Positions 15,552 to 64,000 of a stretch of 64,000 bases of DNA are shown here, one piece after another. The stretch is from contig CAWVWF010000001.1 of assembly GCA_963933885.1 (NCBI GenBank), forward strand, positions 3,638 to 67,637. Direction: 5' to 3'. Source of the stretch: an uncultured Flavobacteriales bacterium. Lineage in GTDB: Bacteria > Bacteroidota > Bacteroidia > Flavobacteriales_C > GCA-002722245. The first letter of the stretch is position 1; every line of letters starts with the position of its first letter. The notes below the pieces were generated by a model. It did not search any database. It was not told the origin of the DNA and saw only the letters and a list, made by a program, of their open reading frames with translations. Both the position numbers and the translations under genes were made by a program.

Positions 15552-16883
15552 ATGAAACTTTGGGACAAGGGATTTAACGTAAATAAAGCAATTGAAGACT
15601 TTACTGTTGGAAATGATACTGAGTTAGATATGTATTTAGCACCTTATGATGTGCTAGGAAACATTGCCCACGTTACGATGTTAACTGAGGTTGGTTTATT
15701 AGAAGAAGATGAACTTCCTGCCTTAAAAAAGGAACTGTCTGCTATTTACAAGACTACTCAAGATGGTAGTTTTAAAATTGAAGCTGGGATGGAAGATGTA
15801 CATTCTCAGGTTGAAAGCTTACTAACTGAAAAGTTAGGTGATGTTGGAAAGAAGGTGCACAGTGCAAGATCAAGAAATGACCAAGTTTTGGTTGATTTGA
15901 AATTATATGGTAGAAATGAGTTGTTAGAAATTTCTGACTTAACAAATAAGTTATTTGAAGCTTTTCAAACTCAGAGTGAAACTCACAAAAATGTTTTACT
16001 TCCTGGATACACACATTTACAGGTAGCAATGCCTTCTTCTTTTGGATTATGGTTTGGTGCTTTTGCTGAATCTTTAGCAGATGATATGGATTTGTTAGCA
16101 ACTGCTTTCAGGTTTACAAATCAAAACCCTTTAGGTTCTGCTGCTGGTTACGGATCGTCTTTCCCAATTAACAGAACAAGAACTACAGAATTACTTGGTT
16201 TCGAGGATATGCATTACAATGTTGTATATGCTCAAATGACACGTGGGAAAACGGAGCGTACTGTTGCTTATGCAATTAGTGCTTTGGCTACTACATTGAT
16301 GAAGTTCTCTGCTGATTCATGTATGTTTATGAGTCAGAACTTTGGATTCATTAAAGTACCTCAAGAGTTCACTACTGGATCTAGTATAATGCCTCACAAG
16401 AAGAATCCTGATGTATTTGAATTGATGCGTGGGAAGTGTAACAAGCTTCAGGCAATCCCTGGAGAATTGGCTGCAATCATGGGGAACTTAACATCTGGAT
16501 ACTTCAGAGATCTTCAATTATTAAAAGAGAAATACATTTACGCTTTTAAAGAAATTAAGGCCTGTTTGGAAATCGCTTTGTTAATGGTTCCGAATATTGA
16601 GGTGAATAAAAACATAATAGACAATGATCTTTACGATTACTTATTTAGTGTTGAGGAGGTAAACAGAAGAGTACTCGAAGGTGTTCCTTTTAGAGAATCT
16701 TACAAGCAAGTTGGATTAGAAATCGAAGCTGGTAATTTTAAGCCTAATAAGAATGTTAAACATACGCATGAAGGATCTTTAGGAAACTTATGTACGGAGA
16801 ATATCAAAGCTAAGATGGATGTTAATTTCGCTAAAATAGACCGTAAGGTTATTGATGAAGCGGTTAAGAACCTACTTGCTTAA
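15552..16883 (+). CDS. argH: argininosuccinate lyase
   Basis: MKLWDKGF N-terminus. The fumarate-lyase signature GSSIMPHKKNPDVFELMRG is present. The track start 15528 is a TTG. I moved the start to the ATG at 15552. Confidence 0.88.
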   Translation: MKLWDKGFNVNKAIEDFTVGNDTELDMYLAPYDVLGNIAHVTMLTEVGLLEEDELPALKKELSAIYKTTQDGSFKIEAGMEDVHSQVESLLTEKLGDVGKKVHSARSRNDQVLVDLKLYGRNELLEISDLTNKLFEAFQTQSETHKNVLLPGYTHLQVAMPSSFGLWFGAFAESLADDMDLLATAFRFTNQNPLGSAAGYGSSFPINRTRTTELLGFEDMHYNVVYAQMTRGKTERTVAYAISALATTLMKFSADSCMFMSQNFGFIKVPQEFTTGSSIMPHKKNPDVFELMRGKCNKLQAIPGELAAIMGNLTSGYFRDLQLLKEKYIYAFKEIKACLEIALLMVPNIEVNKNIIDNDLYDYLFSVEEVNRRVLEGVPFRESYKQVGLEIEAGNFKPNKNVKHTHEGSLGNLCTENIKAKMDVNFAKIDRKVIDEAVKNLLA

Positions 16884-16919
16884 ATAACCTTACAATCTTA
16901 AATTTTAGGGAGGTTAAAA

Positions 16920-19900
16920 CTACCTCAATACATTAACGTGACCCACCTTTTGTTTTCGTCTTGGTTTTCCATCTGGATGATTCATTGAGTAGTATATTTT
17001 ATATACATATGTATCTATCTGAACTTCTCTTCCCATGTACGTTCCATCCCAATCTACAAACATAGATTCAGACTCATAGATTTGTTGTCCCCATCTGTTA
17101 AAAATATACATGTGATAATCCGTTATGTTATGTCCTTTAGCATTAAACGAATCGTTAATTCCATCACCATTCGGGCTGAAAGTATTTGGTATATATAACG
17201 CGCTTGGACAAAATTCATTAAATGTAATACGATCAGTAATAAAACAATTTCCAACACTAATTTGAACTACATAAGTTCCTGCTGATTGAATCGTAATATC
17301 AGATGTTGAATCAGTTGTTCCCCACAAATAATCATAACTCTGATCTGTACCAGCACTAATATTAAAACCTCTATCTGTAAGCTCTTCAAAACAGAAGTAC
17401 TTATTATCTAACGAATGATCTATACCACTTGTAGGCAATGGAACTACATTAACATTAATGGTATCTGTTGAAGAACATAGCTCGTTGCTTACACTTATAA
17501 TATGCGTATTTGTTTGGTTTACATCAAATACTGTTTCAGTTTGACTATCATTCCATGTATAATTTAAGCCTGAAATTCCAGCATCGATAGTTCCTGTTTC
17601 ACCCTCACAAAGATTGATATCTGGTCCTAAATCCACAACTGGAATTGGAACAAAAATTACGTTAACAGTATCTTTTCCGACACAACCTTCTGGTGTTTCA
17701 ACATTGAGAATATAATCGTTAGATCCAGTCGCAGTTATTTGTGAAACCGTATCTGTAGTTGACCATAAGTACGATAGGTTTTGATCTCCCCCTATATCAC
17801 TTACATTAACTAATGTTCCATCACAAACTTTGATATCGGGACCCAAATCAGGATTAGGATTATCGTTTAAAATCACCTCAACAAAAGTTGAGTTTTTACA
17901 ACCTGTAGCAACATTTGTTACTTCCTGATCGAAGATACCTCCAGTAAATACTGTTATTTGAGCAGTTTGCTCAGCGGTACTCCAAACATAATCGAATTGG
18001 TTTCCTTTATCATTTCCTATGACAACAGAATCTCCATTACAAATCGCAGCCTTTGAAGGAGTTACTATTGGTAAAGGATGAACTTCTACTTCTACAATAG
18101 CATCTCCTTCACAACCTTTTCCATCGTCAACATGAACAATATACAATCCACTTGTATCAACGTTAATTACATCTGTTGTTTCATTTGTAGACCATGTGAA
18201 ATTGTAATTATCCACACTTTTATAATTTGGAATTAAATCTACATTCTCACCAATACACAAATCTATTTTCGGTGCGTTGGCAATTGTAACACTCAAGTTT
18301 TGTTCAATCGTAATTTCTGCAGAATCTCTTCCTACACATCCATAAGCATCTGTAATATCCACCCAAGTCCATTCTTTATATGCAGCAATATATGTACTGT
18401 ACTTACTCCTATCATGCCATTCATAAGTATATGGCCCATTTCCATTGTCGAATCCTGAAGCATCTAGCGTTGCCTTCATCCCTGGACACATTGCAACATC
18501 GAATATCACATCAGGTTTTGGAAGTGGAATTACAATTAATTCAACTGTATCTTGAGCAACACAACCATTTGAATCAGTTACTTCAACATCATAAATCCCA
18601 GGTCTTGTTGTATTATATGAATCCTTATCTGAATAATTAAACCATTCATATTTCGCATAAGTTCCTGGTGTAAAAGCTACGCTAGAAGCATTCTCACAAA
18701 TTGTTATATCCAGGCCTAAATCCGGAGTTGGTAGAGGGTTTACAACAAGTACAACAGTATCGCTTCCGGGACACCCCTGAGCATCGATAAAATCAACTGT
18801 GTATTCTCCTGCTTGATTTGTTTGAAAACTACTGATGGTATCTCCAGTATTCCAAATGTATGTTTCGAAACCTAATCCAGCATCAAAAATAACTTCTGAA
18901 TCACCTGCACATATTACTTGATCCTGCATGTTAACTAAAGGCATCTGATTTACTTTTAAGTACATTGTATCGTATCCTAAACAACCATTTGAATCTGTTA
19001 AAATCAGACTATAGTCGCCTTCATCATGGATTTGTATAGATGAAGTAGTAGAATCGTTACTCCATAAATAAGTTGCTTTTGTAAATCCGGTAGTCAATTG
19101 AACTGCTGGGTCCATTGAACAAATTTCTTCATCTGGTCCTATACTTACAATTGGATTAGGATTTACCACAAGTTCCACTGTTGTATCATTTACACAACCA
19201 TTAGAATCGGTTACTTCAATATGGTAAGAATTACCTGCGTTTGTAGATAAAAGCTGATCTACACTTAAACCATTTTGCCAGTTGTAAGAAAGGTAAACAC
19301 CAGCATCCAAAGTTACAGGACTATCGCCATCGCAAATTGTATCGTTTGGAACGTAAGGGATAGGTAGTAAATTTACAATCAACTCAAACGATGTATCGGC
19401 TTTACAACCATTACTATCCGTTACTTCGACTGTATAAACACCACCATCCTTACTGCTGAAAACCGAATCATTATTATTACCATTCCAATCGTAAATATCA
19501 TAATCTCCAACACTAAATTCTACTATTGAATCGCCTTCACAAATCGTATCGTTAGCAACATATGGAATTGGCAATACATTTACTATTAGTTCGAAACTTG
19601 TATCTGATATACATCCATTATCATCCATTACTTCAACGGTATAGACTCCAGAAGCATCTAATTGGATAGTTTGCGTTGTATCATTCGTGCTCCATAAGAA
19701 AGAAGTATAACTCCCAGCGTCGAAAACCACAGGTCCTCCTCCTTCACATATTGTATCATTTGATATAAAAGGAATCGGCTTTGGATTAACTACTAACTCA
19801 AAACTCGTATCCGATACACAACCGTTACTATCTGTTACTTCGATTGTATAGCGTCCTGCTGAATCAAGGTTAATAGTTTGTGTTGAATCTTGCGTACTCC

Positions 19901-58231: not shown

Positions 58232-60313
58232 CTATCTCTTAATAACTTGTAATGCTGTTGTTCCATTTTGATTTCCTATCGATAAGATGTATACTCCACT
58301 ATTTAAAGTTTCTATATTAAACCCTTTCGATACGATACTAGCACCTGCTATAGTTCCTCTTTCGATTACTTTACCTTGAATATCCGTAAGTTGATATGTA
58401 ACTGACTCGTACGACTCAGATACATAATTCAATACAAAACTATTGCTCACTGGATTTGGTGAAATACTTAAATTACTAACTCCTTCAATTCTAGTAATAC
58501 TATTCTGATTACAAACGTTAATTGAAGCTGATTCATGAATATATTCTTCGTTTGCAACATCTGCGTTTACTGTAATTTCTGGTGCTGTAATATTATCATA
58601 GCTAGAACTGTCAATATGTAAATCATACGCTCCTGCAGCTACCCCTGTAAAAGAATAATTCCCTAGTGCATCTGTAGAGGTTGTGTAATGTGTTTGTCCG
58701 TCTTTAACTAAGCTAACACCTAACAAAGCACTTCCTGTTGTTCCGCATGCACTAGAAGTCTTACTCGAAGAGTTCTCATAAAGCTTTCCTGCAACAGTAT
58801 AAACTTTATGAATATACACCGCGTAATCTTCCGCTTGTCCATACTCTGGATTCATACAAGCACTAGAGATCGTATTTAAGTCTAATAACAACCTCATTCG
58901 TAAGAACTGTCCTTCAGTTGCAGTGTTAGGAATTGTTACTGATTGTGAAACTGTAGATTTTGCAGTTAAGGTTTGATCATATATTTCTTCATCGTTGGCG
59001 AAAACTCCATCATTATTGTAATCAATCCAACCCTTTACATAACTTAAATTTGCCCAAGAAGTAACTGATAAATCATAAGAAGAATCTGGGTGTACATAAA
59101 CTGCTTTTAAACACTCATCCGCATTGTTGACATAACCTCCATCATTCGAAGCATAAGAAGAACTTGCTGATAAAGTATGGAAATCAACATTCATTATTCC
59201 AGCGTATCCTCCACTTAAACCTAATGCTTCTGTAGTTGGTTCACATGAAGGTGTTTTTGGCTCTGTAAAGGCTGTTAATGCAACTGATAATCCTTTAGAG
59301 GAAAGTAAGCTTGATCTTGATCCTTCTAAAGTTGCACGCATTCTATCGATCTGATCTTGAGAAAACATATACTGACAATCTTGATCCGAATAATCCATGT
59401 AATTATGTACAACATCCCCGAAAATATTTCCTGTACATTCATTGATTTGACTGTCTGTACAAGTAAAACTTGCACTTACTTTATGTGGATCTGTATCACA
59501 ACACAAATCTCCTTCTGTAGCACAATTAGTATTTGAAGGACAACCATTAGCTGTTGTATCAGCAGCAGTTTGTACCTTAAAAGTATGGTGTAAATTTAAA
59601 CCGTGACCCAATTCATGAATTCCTGTTTTCCCTTGATTGTTCCAAGAATTAGCTGTTCCGGTATTTCCCCAAGCTGAATTCAATATAATAGTTCCATCTC
59701 TCAAGCTAGAGGTTCCAGGGAAATAAGCATAACCTTGTGTTCCAAAACCTCCATCGTTACCTTCAATTTCAGAAACAATCCAGATATTATAATAATCATT
59801 ATTTGGCCATTTACTCGCAGCTTTTAAAGTTACCTCATCAGCTCCCAATGATTGAATAGCTATTCCATCTGTTGTATACCCCGCAATTACAGAAGCATCA
59901 AATCGAACAATTCCTGTTGAAATATTACAACTAGGATCCTGCTTCGCTAAAACAAATTCAATTTTTGTATCAATACCTTGACCATCTACATCTCTAAATG
60001 CATTGTTCAGTTGAGTAATTCCACTTATAATTTGAGCATCCGAAATATTATTCCCAACCCCTATATCTTCACCAGTATGCATTACGTGAATTACCACAGG
60101 GATTTGGTATACTTCACTAGTAGATCTTGTTGTATATCCTTTTTGAATAATTTTTTGAAGTTGATTTTCTATACTTTCAAAACTAGCCTTTGCAGCAGGA
60201 TTTTGTTTTAAATATTCTGAGTGTTTATAGCTATTCGCACACCTTTCAGTGTGTTGCGCAAAAGATACTTGTAAAGCTAAAAATCCAAAAACTGTAAGTA
60301 GAATATTTTTCAT
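58232..60313 (-). CDS. zinc metalloprotease, M43 (pappalysin/cytophagalysin)-like HExxHxxxxxH, with a T9SS type-A CTD
   Basis: HELGHGLNLHHTF motif. Signal peptide. C-terminus LSISPNPVSNSFVLNY…GVYILSI…QVIKR sorting domain. Confidence 0.8.
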   Translation of the reverse strand: MKNILLTVFGFLALQVSFAQHTERCANSYKHSEYLKQNPAAKASFESIENQLQKIIQKGYTTRSTSEVYQIPVVIHVMHTGEDIGVGNNISDAQIISGITQLNNAFRDVDGQGIDTKIEFVLAKQDPSCNISTGIVRFDASVIAGYTTDGIAIQSLGADEVTLKAASKWPNNDYYNIWIVSEIEGNDGGFGTQGYAYFPGTSSLRDGTIILNSAWGNTGTANSWNNQGKTGIHELGHGLNLHHTFKVQTAADTTANGCPSNTNCATEGDLCCDTDPHKVSASFTCTDSQINECTGNIFGDVVHNYMDYSDQDCQYMFSQDQIDRMRATLEGSRSSLLSSKGLSVALTAFTEPKTPSCEPTTEALGLSGGYAGIMNVDFHTLSASSSYASNDGGYVNNADECLKAVYVHPDSSYDLSVTSWANLSYVKGWIDYNNDGVFANDEEIYDQTLTAKSTVSQSVTIPNTATEGQFLRMRLLLDLNTISSACMNPEYGQAEDYAVYIHKVYTVAGKLYENSSSKTSSACGTTGSALLGVSLVKDGQTHYTTSTDALGNYSFTGVAAGAYDLHIDSSSYDNITAPEITVNADVANEEYIHESASINVCNQNSITRIEGVSNLSISPNPVSNSFVLNYVSESYESVTYQLTDIQGKVIERGTIAGASIVSKGFNIETLNSGVYILSIGNQNGTTALQVIKR

Positions 60314-60714
60314 ATTGGTTTAGTTTGTAAGCAAGCAGGCTATTAATGTACCCTCAAATCAGCTAAAATGTTACAGGCACACAATACGGTATTCACCCTA
60401 ATATATAGAAGCGGTATAAAACGTACTAAATTTCTTAAAACATAAACACAAAATTCCTTTTGAAAGTTATCATTTTAAATAAAAATAAAAAGATGCTAAT
60501 AATTTTAGCAAACAAAAAAAGCAACACATCCTTCCGATCCCGTAATACTTTATGAAAAGCATGAAAATTGAATTGTGCAACTACAAAAATAGTTTTTGCA
60601 TTATTGCCAACTTTATTTGCAATTACGCTTTTTTGTTAGTATTATTGATAAAGCAATAGTTTTATAAATTATTGACCAAGACCAATCAACTTTTCAAAAA
60701 ATAAAAAATATATT

Positions 60715-61407
60715 ATGAGCATTTTAAGTAGATTATTTAAAATAGGACAGGCAGAGGCACATTCAATTGCTGACAAATTAGAAGACCCCATTAAATTAAC
60801 AGAACAAGGAATTCGTGATTTGAAGGCAGATCTTGATCAAAGTTTAAAGGCATTAGCAGAAGTTAAAGCGATGCTAATCAGATCAAAAAGTGATTTCAAA
60901 AAATCCGAAGAAGCATCAACTAGCTATGAGCAAAAAGCAATGGCAATTCTAAAAAAGGTTCAAACTGGAGAAATCTCTTCTGAAGAGGCTGATAGATTAG
61001 CTGGAGAGGCATTAAGGAAAAAAGACGAAAACGATGCTTCTGCTAAAAGAACAAAAGCGGAACTTCATACATTTGAGACTTCAAGTACTAAATTAGATTT
61101 GAATGTTAAAAAAATAAGATCTAATATTAGTCAGTGGGAAAACGAATTGAAAACGTTAAAGGCGAGAATTAAAGTAAGTGAAACGACTTTAAAACTAAAC
61201 AAACAATTATCTGAAACAGATTCTTCTGGAACGATTTCTATGTTGGAAAAGATGAAAGAAAAGGTTGATCAAGATGAAGCTTTATCAGAAGCTTACGAAG
61301 ACATCTCGAACGAAAACCAATCGTTAGATGACGAAATTAATGAAGTACTCAAGGAAGATACTTCAAGTACTTCTCTTGATGAACTCAAGAAAAAAATGGG
61401 AATTTAA
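60715..61407 (+). CDS. PspA/IM30 (phage-shock protein A / Vipp1) family protein
   Basis: MSILSRLFKIGQAEAHSIADKLEDPIKLTEQGIRDLKADL… is the canonical PspA N-terminus. All-helical and heptad-rich. 230 aa. Confidence 0.8.
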   Translation: MSILSRLFKIGQAEAHSIADKLEDPIKLTEQGIRDLKADLDQSLKALAEVKAMLIRSKSDFKKSEEASTSYEQKAMAILKKVQTGEISSEEADRLAGEALRKKDENDASAKRTKAELHTFETSSTKLDLNVKKIRSNISQWENELKTLKARIKVSETTLKLNKQLSETDSSGTISMLEKMKEKVDQDEALSEAYEDISNENQSLDDEINEVLKEDTSSTSLDELKKKMGI

Positions 61408-61422
61408 GATAAAAGATACATT

Positions 61423-61965
61423 ATGGGAATTTTTGATTTTTTTAAAAAGAAAGAAGAAGAGATTAAGGAATTAAACATCACCAATCTAGATATTGGTGGA
61501 ATCCTCGATTACGATTTACAATCTTGGATTATAGAAGATAAAACAGAATACGACTGGGGTAACAACCAGTTTACGTTTGAATATACTATCAATGCTGGTG
61601 ACGAATCGATATACTTACACGTAACAGAAGGCGCTAATATTAAAATTGATATTAGTTCAGAAATAAAGGTCTCTCAATTAGGTTGGGATTTTAAAGACAC
61701 GATCGTTAAAAATGATGCCCCTTTAAAGAAAATCGCCTTCGAAAATGAGCATTACACTTTGTCTGATGAGTTCATGGGCCACTGTAAAAGCATCAAAGAG
61801 GACGATGATGAATGGAGTGAATTTGTAAATTGGGTTTTCGTTAACGAAGATGAATCTAAGTTTATTTCGGTAAGCAGATGGGGTGAAACAGATATTGATG
61901 CTGTGAAAGGTTTCTATATTAAAGAGTTTGAAGTATCAAATTTCTTATCTTCACCGAATAATTAA
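61423..61965 (+). CDS. soluble ~180 aa protein, DUF4178-like (PspA-associated family); assignment tentative
   Basis: It sits 15 bp after the pspA-like gene. Trp/Glu/Asp-rich with no TM segment. Size and context match the DUF4178 proteins that accompany PspA in Firmicutes, but this is from recollection, not a search. Confidence 0.5.
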   Translation: MGIFDFFKKKEEEIKELNITNLDIGGILDYDLQSWIIEDKTEYDWGNNQFTFEYTINAGDESIYLHVTEGANIKIDISSEIKVSQLGWDFKDTIVKNDAPLKKIAFENEHYTLSDEFMGHCKSIKEDDDEWSEFVNWVFVNEDESKFISVSRWGETDIDAVKGFYIKEFEVSNFLSSPNN

Positions 61966-61969
61966 TTTC

Positions 61970-62662
61970 ATGAAATATCTTTTATCAATTTTTTCAATCA
62001 TTTTTCTACTAGGATGTGGTGGTAATAGCTACCATTATGTTCCTAATCCTGTTGATCAAATGATCAAGACAATGAAAAAGGAGAAAGCATTTACGATCAT
62101 TCTAGATGATATGGATGTTAAAGATGATGAATTCTTTCACAAATATTCGGTTATTAAAGAAGATGCAGCAGGAGCAATAACAACTTCTGAAACTGGGATG
62201 ATTATCGTTGATTTTGAGTTTTTTAAAAAGAATGAAAACAACCTAGGAATGCAAATCGCTGCTAAAGACAGTACTGGAAAAGTAACTAAAGCTGCTATTC
62301 CTGCAGGATTCGATCGATATATTGGTAATTCAAGATATGGTCATTGGAATCAATCAGGAGGACAAAGTTTTTGGGTTTTTTATGGTCAATACTCAATGTT
62401 AAGATCTGTTTTTGGGCTAGGGTATCACCCAGCATACTATGGCATGCATAACAGCTACTACCGTGGAGGATACTATGGAAGTTCTCGTTCATATTATGGA
62501 ACAGGTGCAAATAGCTACGGAACAAAAAGCGCAGCTGTAAAGAAAGGGAAACCTAACTTTTTTAGTAGAAAAGCAAGAAATACAAATTGGAAAAGAAGTA
62601 CTTCAAGATCATCCTCTTCACGAAGAAGTGGAAGAGGTGGAGGATTTGGATTCGGAAAATAG
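61970..62662 (+). CDS. lipoprotein with a C-terminal Tyr/Gly/Ser/Arg-rich low-complexity tail
   Basis: MKYLLSIFSIIFLLGCGG has a lipobox. The tail reads …YYGMHNSYYRGGYYGSSRSYYGTGANSYG…RSSSSRRSGRGGGFGFGK. The start was trimmed from the TTG at 61928 to the ATG at 61970. Confidence 0.55.
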   Translation: MKYLLSIFSIIFLLGCGGNSYHYVPNPVDQMIKTMKKEKAFTIILDDMDVKDDEFFHKYSVIKEDAAGAITTSETGMIIVDFEFFKKNENNLGMQIAAKDSTGKVTKAAIPAGFDRYIGNSRYGHWNQSGGQSFWVFYGQYSMLRSVFGLGYHPAYYGMHNSYYRGGYYGSSRSYYGTGANSYGTKSAAVKKGKPNFFSRKARNTNWKRSTSRSSSSRRSGRGGGFGFGK

Positions 62663-62668
62663 AAAAAA

Positions 62669-63529
62669 ATGACAGAATTTATCTCAGAACATATCACAGA
62701 ATTAGGAATTTCTGCATTGTATTTCCTTGCATCACTTGTCCTATTTTTAATAGGTAAGATTGCATTTCAACAATTCAATAGAAAAATCAATGTAACCAAC
62801 GAGCTTTTAGAAAAAGACAATCTTGCTTTTTCCTTTTCATTAGTTGGGTATTATATTGGACTTACACTGGCAATTGGAAGTGCATTATTAGGAGAAGGGG
62901 AATCTCTTCAAGCTAATATGATATCAATTGGAATTTATGGATTAGGAGCTATCCTTCTTCTTAATATCTCCTCAATAATAAACGACAAGTTAATTTTCCG
63001 AAAGTTTAAAATGCAAAAGGAAATTACTGAAGATGAAAATGTTGGTTCTGGAGTTATTGAAGCAGCCAATTACGTTGCAACAGGTTTAATCATTTTTGGA
63101 GCAAGTAAAGGAGCTGTTAGTTTTGATATTATCATTCTTTATTGGGCCATTGCTCAAGTTGCTTTAATTCTATCCTCTGTACTTTACAACATTATCACAC
63201 CTTACGATATTCACGATGAAATCGAAAAAGACAATGTTGCTGTAGGAGTTGGTTTTGCAGGAACAATTATCGGTATGGCAATTATCTTATCGTATGCAGT
63301 ATCTAATCATTACGATTCAATCCCTGAAGCAAGTATTTCTATCGGAACACTGATAATAATTGGATTAATCACATTACCACTTACTCGTATTGTTACAGAT
63401 AAGGTATTACTTTCAGGATATAGTCTAACGGATGAATTAGTTAATCAGCAAAAACCAAATATAGGTTGTGGATTAATTGAAGCAACGGCATATATTGGAG
63501 CTTCTATTTTGTTGACATGGTGTTTTTAA
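62669..63529 (+). CDS. integral membrane protein made of four tandem DUF350-like units
   Basis: Four ~65 aa repeats each carry E/D-x-D-N-x-A/G-x-G-x-x-x-A/G-x-x-I (ELLEKDNLAFSFSLVGYYIG, EDENVGSGVIEAANYVATG, EIEKDNVAVGVGFAGTIIG, DELVNQQKPNIGCGLIEATAYIG). Each is followed by hydrophobic helices. Confidence 0.6.
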   Translation: MTEFISEHITELGISALYFLASLVLFLIGKIAFQQFNRKINVTNELLEKDNLAFSFSLVGYYIGLTLAIGSALLGEGESLQANMISIGIYGLGAILLLNISSIINDKLIFRKFKMQKEITEDENVGSGVIEAANYVATGLIIFGASKGAVSFDIIILYWAIAQVALILSSVLYNIITPYDIHDEIEKDNVAVGVGFAGTIIGMAIILSYAVSNHYDSIPEASISIGTLIIIGLITLPLTRIVTDKVLLSGYSLTDELVNQQKPNIGCGLIEATAYIGASILLTWCF

Positions 63530-63539
63530 TACATTAAAA

Positions 63540-63911
63540 ATGGCACTAGGATTACATATAATTGCAGAGTTTAACGACTGCTCTAATAAGATTATCGACG
63601 ATATACAGGTCACTGAATCATATTTAAATGAAGCTGCAATTATTGCGGGAGCAACAATTGTAAAATCAGTATTTCACAAATTCGCTCCACAAGGAATCTC
63701 GGGTGTTGTAGTTATTGAAGAAAGTCATTTCGCGATTCATACATGGCCTGAGAACAATTACGCTGCAGTTGATTTATTCACTTGTTCTGATAAGATGGAT
63801 TACAATAAGGCACTTGAATTTTTAAAAGAAAAATTTGAATGTAAAAATCTTGAATTTCAAGTTATCGAAAGAGGTGTGAAAGCAGTAAAAGTCGAAAGTG
63901 AATGTCGATAA
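63540..63911 (+). CDS. speH: S-adenosylmethionine decarboxylase proenzyme (class I, SpeH/SpeD-type)
   Basis: The processing/active-site region VVVIEESHFAIHTWPE (ES cleavage site giving pyruvoyl; HTWPE) is diagnostic. 123 aa. Confidence 0.8.
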   Translation: MALGLHIIAEFNDCSNKIIDDIQVTESYLNEAAIIAGATIVKSVFHKFAPQGISGVVVIEESHFAIHTWPENNYAAVDLFTCSDKMDYNKALEFLKEKFECKNLEFQVIERGVKAVKVESECR

Positions 63912-64000
63912 GAGAAGATCGTATCGAAATGCGGAGGATTATCCAGCAACGAAGGAGAGAACAAACACTGCATTGGATTCAGGAAACTAAGGATATGCGA

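Follow-up and report, generated by a model that had tools for sequence, protein, structure and literature searches.

The window analysed here is a 64-kb stretch (64,000 nucleotides) of contig CAWVWF010000001.1 from an uncultured marine Flavobacteriales bacterium, and it ends within a tightly packed gene run in which PspA/IM30 is linked to polyamine enzymes. We found five open reading frames (ORFs) on its plus strand: pspA (60715-61407), encoding a cytoplasmic PspA/IM30-family protein of 230 amino acids (aa); a DUF4178 gene (61423-61965), encoding a cytoplasmic protein of 180 aa; a lipoprotein gene (61970-62662; 230 aa, lipobox Cys16); a tandem-DUF350 gene (62669-63529; 286 aa), whose product has eight transmembrane (TM) helices; and speH (63540-63911), encoding a predicted class-1b pyruvoyl S-adenosylmethionine decarboxylase (AdoMetDC) proenzyme of 123 aa, which is cytoplasmic because it has no signal peptide. 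The gaps between them are only 15, 4, 6 and 10 bp. The original prediction, made from the letters of the window, had listed the same five ORFs with these coordinates and gaps. We reproduced them, and Pfam and NCBIfam profile searches bear out all of its domain assignments (PspA/IM30, DUF4178, DUF350 and AdoMetDC). It had also pointed to an open frame at the speH stop codon. This frame is real: it starts at ATG 63902, overlaps speH by 10 nt on the same strand, and is cut by the window end (63902-64000). A 72.8-kb Tara Oceans metagenome scaffold (L001), identical to the window across 10,461 shared bases, carries the rest of the run. There, genes six to nine (L001 10363-15289) encode a 265-aa protein with three TM helices (3-TM protein), a seven-TM spermidine-synthase-like protein (7TM-SpeE), a His-rich membrane protein and a flavin adenine dinucleotide (FAD) amine oxidase, and the junctions downstream of speH are -10, 2, -8 and -8 nt. 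The predicted five-gene block therefore stands, but the full run consists of nine genes, not five, in the order pspA, DUF4178, lipoprotein, 8-TM DUF350, speH, 3-TM protein, 7TM-speE, His-rich membrane protein and oxidase. Judging from this spacing, the nine genes probably form one transcription unit.

The PspA protein matches PspA_IM30 (PF04012) over residues 2-226 (4.8e-35; 121.6 bits against a cutoff of 33.9) and has the N-terminal amphipathic start MSILSRLFKIG. The second protein matches DUF4178 (PF13785) over residues 24-167 (1.9e-12; 47.9 bits, cutoff 25), a domain carried by all 25 of its homologues (25/25). Its structural model (pLDDT 84) shows two tandem small beta-barrels with only generic structural neighbours. 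The lipoprotein has an LLGC lipobox, with Cys16 invariant in 37 homologues. Its signal peptide is followed by an alpha/beta domain (about residues 27-110), then by a conserved region of aromatic and Gly residues and finally by a disordered tail of Tyr, Gly, Ser and Arg; in the model, the small structured domain has no structural neighbours and the tail is disordered. Despite the variable low-complexity tail, the C-terminus ([GS]G[FYS]GK; window positions 62648-62662) ends in Gly-Lys in 76/76 orthologues. The protein matches no Pfam or NCBIfam family, and its own family comprises 972 representatives at 50% identity. An EAGR box was considered for it and rejected as a compositional match of aromatic and Gly residues (21.3 bits against 27 in Pfam; 16.8 against 34.1 in NCBIfam). 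Sequence searches of solved structures with the DUF4178 protein, the lipoprotein and the 360-aa His-rich membrane protein, both as single sequences and as profiles, gave no match.

The tandem-DUF350 protein matches PF03994 in two stretches of the 133-position model (4.1e-52; 176.2 bits, cutoff 26). It thus contains two DUF350 domains, and its eight TM helices form four 2-TM repeats. An acidic motif of the E-x-D-N-x-A type precedes each of the four repeats, and all four motifs lie on predicted cytoplasmic loops; the topology predicted from 79 orthologues is N-out/C-out. The protein keeps 50-65% identity across Bacteroidota and beyond. SpeH matches AdoMet_dc (PF02675) with 1.2e-39 and passes NCBIfam TIGR03330, the Bacillus-type class-1b AdoMetDC (136.8 bits against a cutoff of 75.65). 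Its sequence IEE/SHFAIHTWPE contains the self-cleavage site Glu61/Ser62, and His67 and Cys82 are also present, consistent with a class-1b AdoMetDC. Members of the AdoMetDC family differ in their specificity for S-adenosylmethionine (SAM) versus Orn or Arg (PMC10407285).

The sixth gene product (265 aa) has a periplasmic beta-rich domain besides its three TM helices and is clade-specific. A speE-like gene, which the original prediction had named beside an ATP-grasp gene as one to look for after speH, is the seventh one (L001 11163-12716; 517 aa), just past the window end. Its product, 7TM-SpeE, passes the NF002956/PRK03612 profile for long membrane-fused polyamine aminopropyltransferases over residues 5-509 (533 bits against 472). 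The catalytic motifs are intact and invariant in 76 orthologues (YHE, GGGDG, DLD, D348, DxPDP and Q400/S403), and conserved polar residues lie within the helices of the TM domain. The active site is of the YHE type of thermospermine synthases and long-chain aminopropyltransferases, and among solved structures the enzyme comes closest to thermospermine synthase and the Thermus thermophilus long-chain aminopropyltransferase, not to putrescine-specific enzymes. In the 76 orthologues, Lys and Arg residues average 1.7 per sequence in the N-terminus and 2.9, 2.8 and 3.0 in loops 2-3, 4-5 and 6-7 (10.4 in sum), and 0.0 in loops 1-2 and 3-4. Because of this distribution, the positive-inside rule predicts an N-in/C-out orientation with the catalytic domain in the periplasm. 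This topology prediction is new in the present analysis.

The eighth gene (L001 12709-13791) encodes the polytopic His-rich membrane protein of 360 aa, which has relatives in neither Pfam nor the PDB. For all eight orthologues, the gene adjoins that of a Tat (twin-arginine translocation)-exported amine oxidase, and His54, His72, His109, His151, His243, His336, Glu289, Glu290, Asp294 and Asp340 are invariant among them. The protein looks like an undescribed membrane metallo-enzyme. The ninth gene encodes a 501-aa flavin (FAD) amine-oxidase-like protein, predicted to be a Tat-exported lipoprotein. RRxF[LV]K and a lipobox Cys are present in 11/12 orthologues, and the window's copy has Arg-Lys. 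This twin-arginine lipoprotein signal is also described here for the first time, and it implies that part of the chemistry would be periplasmic.

A scan with the 8-TM DUF350 profile against one genome per species found more than 560 encoding genomes, and the best 80 loci were examined: the nine proteins served as queries against their ORFs, and all ORFs were also clustered. The counts below refer to the loci assessable for each gene. The 80 loci belong mostly to Bacteroidota, together with Rhodothermota (Rhodothermaceae), Desulfobacterota (Desulfobacterales) and Nitrospinota (Nitrospina). Their usual gene order is CesT/Tir, PspA, DUF4178, lipoprotein, DUF350x2, 7TM-SpeE and SpeH. The linkage of the pspA side with the polyamine side, which had been proposed from the window, is therefore kept across phyla, and the recurrence of the same order in 80 loci of species-representative genomes is far beyond chance. 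7TM-SpeE is present in 77/77 loci and the lipoprotein in 76/77, followed by DUF4178 (68/77), PspA (52/71), CesT_Tir_1 (48/70) and SpeH (43/73). The constant core is thus the membrane trio of lipoprotein, 8-TM DUF350 and 7TM-SpeE, which is almost invariant, and not PspA. The original prediction had built the system on PspA as its fixed component, and this part does not hold: PspA is missing even in the closest nine-gene relative (L002), which also lacks CesT/Tir. Coupling to PspA is therefore facultative. CesT_Tir_1 (PF22550) stands directly upstream of PspA in related loci and is absent from the six-frame translation of the 64-kb window.

The position of SpeH in the middle of the operon is a clade-specific order; elsewhere, its gene usually comes after the SpeE gene. 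The combination of a central speH, the 265-aa protein and a terminal His-rich protein and oxidase was limited to four loci (the window, L002, L003 and L004), all from uncultured marine Flavobacteriales. In Cyclobacteriaceae, a separate four-gene module lies on the minus strand a few kb downstream of the PspA-side operon (L013 13088-17178, L032 14391-18439, L051 15065-20171 and L076 14007-19127). It encodes SpeH, a divergent membrane SpeE in which GGENG or GGDNG replaces GGGDG, the His-rich membrane protein and the Tat-lipoprotein FAD oxidase. We rejected the SpeE of this module as the orthologue of the window's enzyme, since it is only 25-39% identical to it, against 52-55% for the PspA-side enzyme. 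The nine-gene operon seems to have arisen when two modules fused and one SpeE was lost, because its last two genes belong to a separate module in Cyclobacteriaceae and its SpeE is orthologous to the PspA-side enzyme.

Several other genes accompany the related loci. K+ channels (Ion_trans_2 with TrkA_N/RCK) are found downstream of the SpeE/SpeH genes in 33 loci (for example, L014 12954-14006), and voltage-sensor-type K+ channels in 9 loci; L002 also has a K+ channel (16189-16998), and there is none at the corresponding position of the window's scaffold. A rhomboid gene follows in 13 loci. In 7 loci, a Cupin_8/JmjC-like protein occupies the place of PspA and DUF4178 ahead of the trio; this arrangement is seen in some Cytophagales (L011, L029, L034, L045, L055 and L058).

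We also investigated the architecture of long members of the lipoprotein family. In 7 of the 10 long representatives scanned (P0213, P0273, P0282, P0302, P0310, P0317 and P0327, all matches of the lipoprotein profile), a DUF4178 domain is fused through one TM helix to the lipoprotein domain, and the basic residues sit on the DUF4178 side of this helix. These natural fusions through a single basic-flanked helix assign DUF4178 to the cytoplasm and the lipoprotein domain to the exterior, which argues that the two cooperate across the membrane. This fusion-based placement is likewise new in the present analysis. Other long members are built differently: P0208 carries the lipoprotein domain twice in tandem, and in P0345 a TM helix at the N-terminus and a long coiled coil precede this domain. 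Free DUF4178 proteins share an invariant N-terminal motif, MGxFDFFKK. In the window, residues 1-10 (61423-61452) read MGIFDFFKKK; F4, F7, K8 and K9 are invariant, and the segment is disordered in the model. The motif may be a membrane or partner anchor of free DUF4178, because it is missing in the membrane-fused proteins P0213 and P0302, the two fusions that could be read from their start. This start resembles that of the PspA helix alpha-0 and that of Escherichia coli YjfK (MSGFFQRLFGK).

The locus is a member of a described class of PspA-associated polyamine operons, with a variant layout. Ravi et al. (2024; mSystems 9:e00847-23; PMC11237479) identified by comparative genomics a 'second major group' of CesT/Tir-PspA operons of six to seven genes, containing PspA, DUF4178, a novel lipoprotein, a YjfL-family 8-TM DUF350 protein and a 7TM-spermidine-synthase-like protein, with Shewanella oneidensis AAN56744-AAN56747 as an example. 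The association is real, as the original prediction had held, but its novelty does not stand, since it was already published. The same authors reported AdoMet decarboxylase and polyamine oxidase in related variants, credited the AdoMetDC link to Li et al. 2019, and proposed a PspA-based system that monitors polyamines or the aminopropylation of other substrates (PMC11237479). Most of our 80 loci match this group in composition and order. The locus itself has the 7TM-spermidine-synthase-like protein, the 8-TM DUF350 protein and an adjacent DUF4178 gene, and its lipoprotein, of an unnamed family, sits where the group's 'Ctha_1186 domain' lipoprotein would be expected. It differs in lacking the 5' CesT/Tir-PspA dyad (only PspA is present; the dyad is found in 48/70 related loci) and in adding speH between the DUF350 and SpeE genes, the 3-TM protein, the His-rich protein and the oxidase. 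Reportedly, the 2019 study by Li, Kurihara, Kim, Liang and Michael described class-1b AdoMetDC clustered with a membrane-fused spermidine-synthase (SpdSyn)-like protein and DUF350, and proposed an aminopropylation substrate other than putrescine. It is said to have found that the AdoMetDCs are active, that spermidine is absent and that the fusion protein fails to complement an E. coli speE mutant; topology, the lipoprotein and DUF4178-lipoprotein fusions were apparently not addressed.

The parallel with E. coli yjfIJKLMC that had been drawn from the window is correct. Both gene sets are co-directional, and the E. coli one encodes the CesT/Tir-like YjfI, the PspA paralogue YjfJ (27% identical to the window's PspA over 152 aa), the beta-rich YjfK, the DUF350 protein YjfL (27% identical to the tandem-DUF350 protein), the lipoprotein YjfM and the polyamine-conjugating YjfC. 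In contrast to the window, its enzyme is an ATP-grasp peptide-spermidine ligase and its DUF350 protein has a single domain with 4 TM helices. The ATP-grasp glutathionylspermidine-synthetase-like ligase, a mark of group 3 of Ravi et al., is absent in L001, where an aminopropyltransferase takes its place. YjfM and YjfK also have no detectable homology to the lipoprotein and DUF4178, respectively. The suggested DUF1190/YjfM kinship of the lipoprotein failed, with an hhalign probability of 1.5% for an 18-sequence profile against YjfM and no Pfam match at E<=1; only the composition of the Ser/Arg/Gly tails is similar. DUF4178 as a relative of YjfK (DUF2491) was rejected as well, at an hhalign probability of 3.4%, with only a G-F-F-x-x-F-x-K-like N-terminal start in common. 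The E. coli yjfIJKL genes behave as one regulon, and a promoter mutation raised their expression in heat-evolved strains. YjfC and YgiC are peptide-spermidine ligases that adjoin the lipoprotein genes yjfM and ygiB and have no known physiological substrate.

Other systems are more distant. Mycobacterium tuberculosis Rv2597-Rv2601 also has a long membrane-fused SpeE (PRK03612 type) with a DUF350 neighbour but, by description, lacks PspA and has DUF4247 and DUF2617 proteins instead; Ravi et al. (PMC11237479) regard it as a variant without the CesT/Tir-PspA dyad. For B. subtilis ydjFGHI, which had been cited as another parallel, their domain description gives no backing for a DUF4178 member. The classical E. 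coli pspF-pspABCDE system has the PspA/IM30 effector in common with the window locus but differs otherwise: the window's PspA is far under the cutoff of the E. coli PspA equivalog TIGR02977 (52.9 bits against 242.95), and precomputed Pfam hits of the called neighbouring genes include no PspB, PspC or PspF. An architectural precedent for 7TM-SpeE is the fungal NHMT (AN4663), in which a 7-TM domain (residues 1-215) is joined to a spermidine-synthase-like Rossmann domain and which modifies the N-termini of proteins passing the secretory pathway (Nat Commun 2023;14:4202). In BLAST searches, its authors found the 7-TM domain only in fungi (Nat Commun 2023;14:4202), and the likeness is at the level of architecture. 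NHMT uses SAM and has Ile in place of the Asp in GxG(D/E)G; the bacterial SpeE keeps GGGDG, whose acidic residue selects decarboxylated SAM.

The whole is best explained by envelope-side aminopropylation coupled to PspA, to which we assign a probability of roughly 0.6. Decarboxylated SAM would be produced by the cytoplasmic SpeH. The 7TM-SpeE protein, whose catalytic domain is probably periplasmic, would receive this donor through its own conserved polar 7-TM domain and aminopropylate, on the envelope side, an acceptor other than cytoplasmic putrescine; this could be a small amine, a lipid head group or the partner lipoprotein. The surface of the membrane would thereby gain positive charge. 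Together, the lipoprotein on the outside, the membrane-embedded 8-TM DUF350 protein and the cytoplasmic DUF4178 may constitute a trans-membrane partner or sensor of SpeE, and the periplasmic flavin amine oxidase may turn the product over. Membrane repair is the role of PspA/IM30/ESCRT-III proteins in bacteria, archaea and chloroplasts, and PspA, where present, would protect or remodel the inner membrane at the site of the enzyme. In a more specific version, the 7-TM domain conducts decarboxylated SAM, the periplasmic SpeE modifies the lipoprotein tail or a lipid head group, the oxidase acts as an eraser, and the lipoprotein-DUF350-DUF4178 bridge reports the envelope state to PspA. We consider this full scheme rather unlikely; if true, it would be an unprecedented type of envelope modification and the first case in bacteria of a SAM-derived group being transferred outside the cytoplasm.

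Several points weigh against envelope-side aminopropylation coupled to PspA. Decarboxylated SAM is made in the cytoplasm and has no known exporter, and, to our knowledge, all characterised aminopropyltransferases are cytoplasmic. The orientation of SpeE is based only on crude hydropathy and the positive-inside count, and the 15 residues past its TM7 are themselves basic (3.2 Lys and Arg). PspA and CesT/Tir are dispensable in close relatives, as L002 illustrates. Co-transcription is deduced only from gene spacing, with no assignable promoter or terminator, and later papers report no experimental data for members of this operon class.

Alternatively, 7TM-SpeE might make a free polyamine (thermospermine, norspermine or a longer one) from a cellular di- or triamine, to be handed outside, with DUF350 as a channel, the lipoprotein tail as a binding partner, the oxidase degrading excess and PspA guarding against leakage. 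The similarity of the catalytic domain to free-polyamine enzymes (6bq2, 1uir and 3anx), the presence of a flavin amine oxidase and the four conserved acidic loop motifs of DUF350 are all consistent with such a route, as are the RCK-gated K+ channels linked in 33 loci, which suggest cation homeostasis. However, a simple exporter would need neither a near-invariant lipoprotein nor DUF4178-lipoprotein fusions, and the reported absence of spermidine and of speE complementation by the fusion protein also speaks against it. We regard this export of free polyamine as possible but unlikely. A second alternative is the modification of a protein amine, for which the best target would be the co-encoded lipoprotein with its tail ending in Gly-Lys. 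All 76 lipoprotein orthologues have this ending, no other neighbour accompanies the enzyme as constantly as the lipoprotein, the peptide-spermidine ligases YgiC and YjfC are encoded beside lipoprotein genes, and the 7TM/SpdS-like NHMT of fungi acts on the N-termini of secreted proteins. This evidence is purely circumstantial, and no DUF1190 homology of the lipoprotein was detected. Aminopropyl-lysine is not known to us from bacterial envelope proteins. We regard protein aminopropylation as doubtful. Lastly, an ordinary speH-speE spermidine operon merely adjoining a psp-like operon would account for a SpeH above the AdoMetDC equivalog cutoff and a SpeE domain with all catalytic motifs, but it is very unlikely because the same order is found in 80 loci of several phyla, every SpeE is joined to a conserved 7-TM domain, the lipoprotein and DUF350 genes occur in essentially every locus, SpeH is adjacent in only 43/73 and intra-run gaps are at most 15 nt.

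The operon class is widespread: more than 560 species-representative genomes encode the 8-TM DUF350 protein, and the class has relatives in E. coli, Shewanella and M. tuberculosis. Sharper, testable hypotheses for it follow from the predicted topology and from the fusions of DUF4178 with the lipoprotein domain.

We then investigated the region upstream of pspA. A conserved block of about 40 nt with two TTTGCA repeats (AAATAGTTTTTGCATTATTGCCAACTTTATTTGCAATTA; 60587-60625, plus strand) lies about 100-120 nt upstream of pspA and is a candidate promoter or operator. In L003 and L004, it aligns with the sequence ahead of the first gene, which there is cesT/tir instead of pspA. The same block preceding either gene suggests that the promoter region was kept while the chaperone gene was lost or gained. 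The block is conserved only inside the window's clade, and a motif search upstream of 53 loci found no element kept outside the immediate clade. The Bacteroidetes TAnnTTTG motif is absent in the 400 nt upstream, a scan for sigma-70 promoters and terminators gave no excess over the shuffled expectation, and an Rfam search of the whole cluster returned a single, unrelated sub-threshold match. For the five proteins of the run that the window encodes, a PADLOC comparison with known anti-phage defence systems gave only weak coiled-coil noise for PspA and no match for the other four.

The surrounding genome is typical of marine Bacteroidota, with about 33.5% G+C, type IX secretion system (T9SS) cargo, BamA, Skp and arginine biosynthesis genes. 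The divergent upstream neighbour (58232-60313, minus strand) encodes a secreted M43 metalloprotease with a T9SS sorting domain, and very large T9SS/CHU_C cargo proteins (1,111 to 1,946 aa) are abundant in the window. Beyond the oxidase, two more co-directional genes follow, encoding a DUF5686 protein and a 162-aa membrane protein, which are not conserved in relatives. The latter, two genes past the oxidase (L001 17798-18286), shows a sub-threshold DUF350 match (E 0.022).

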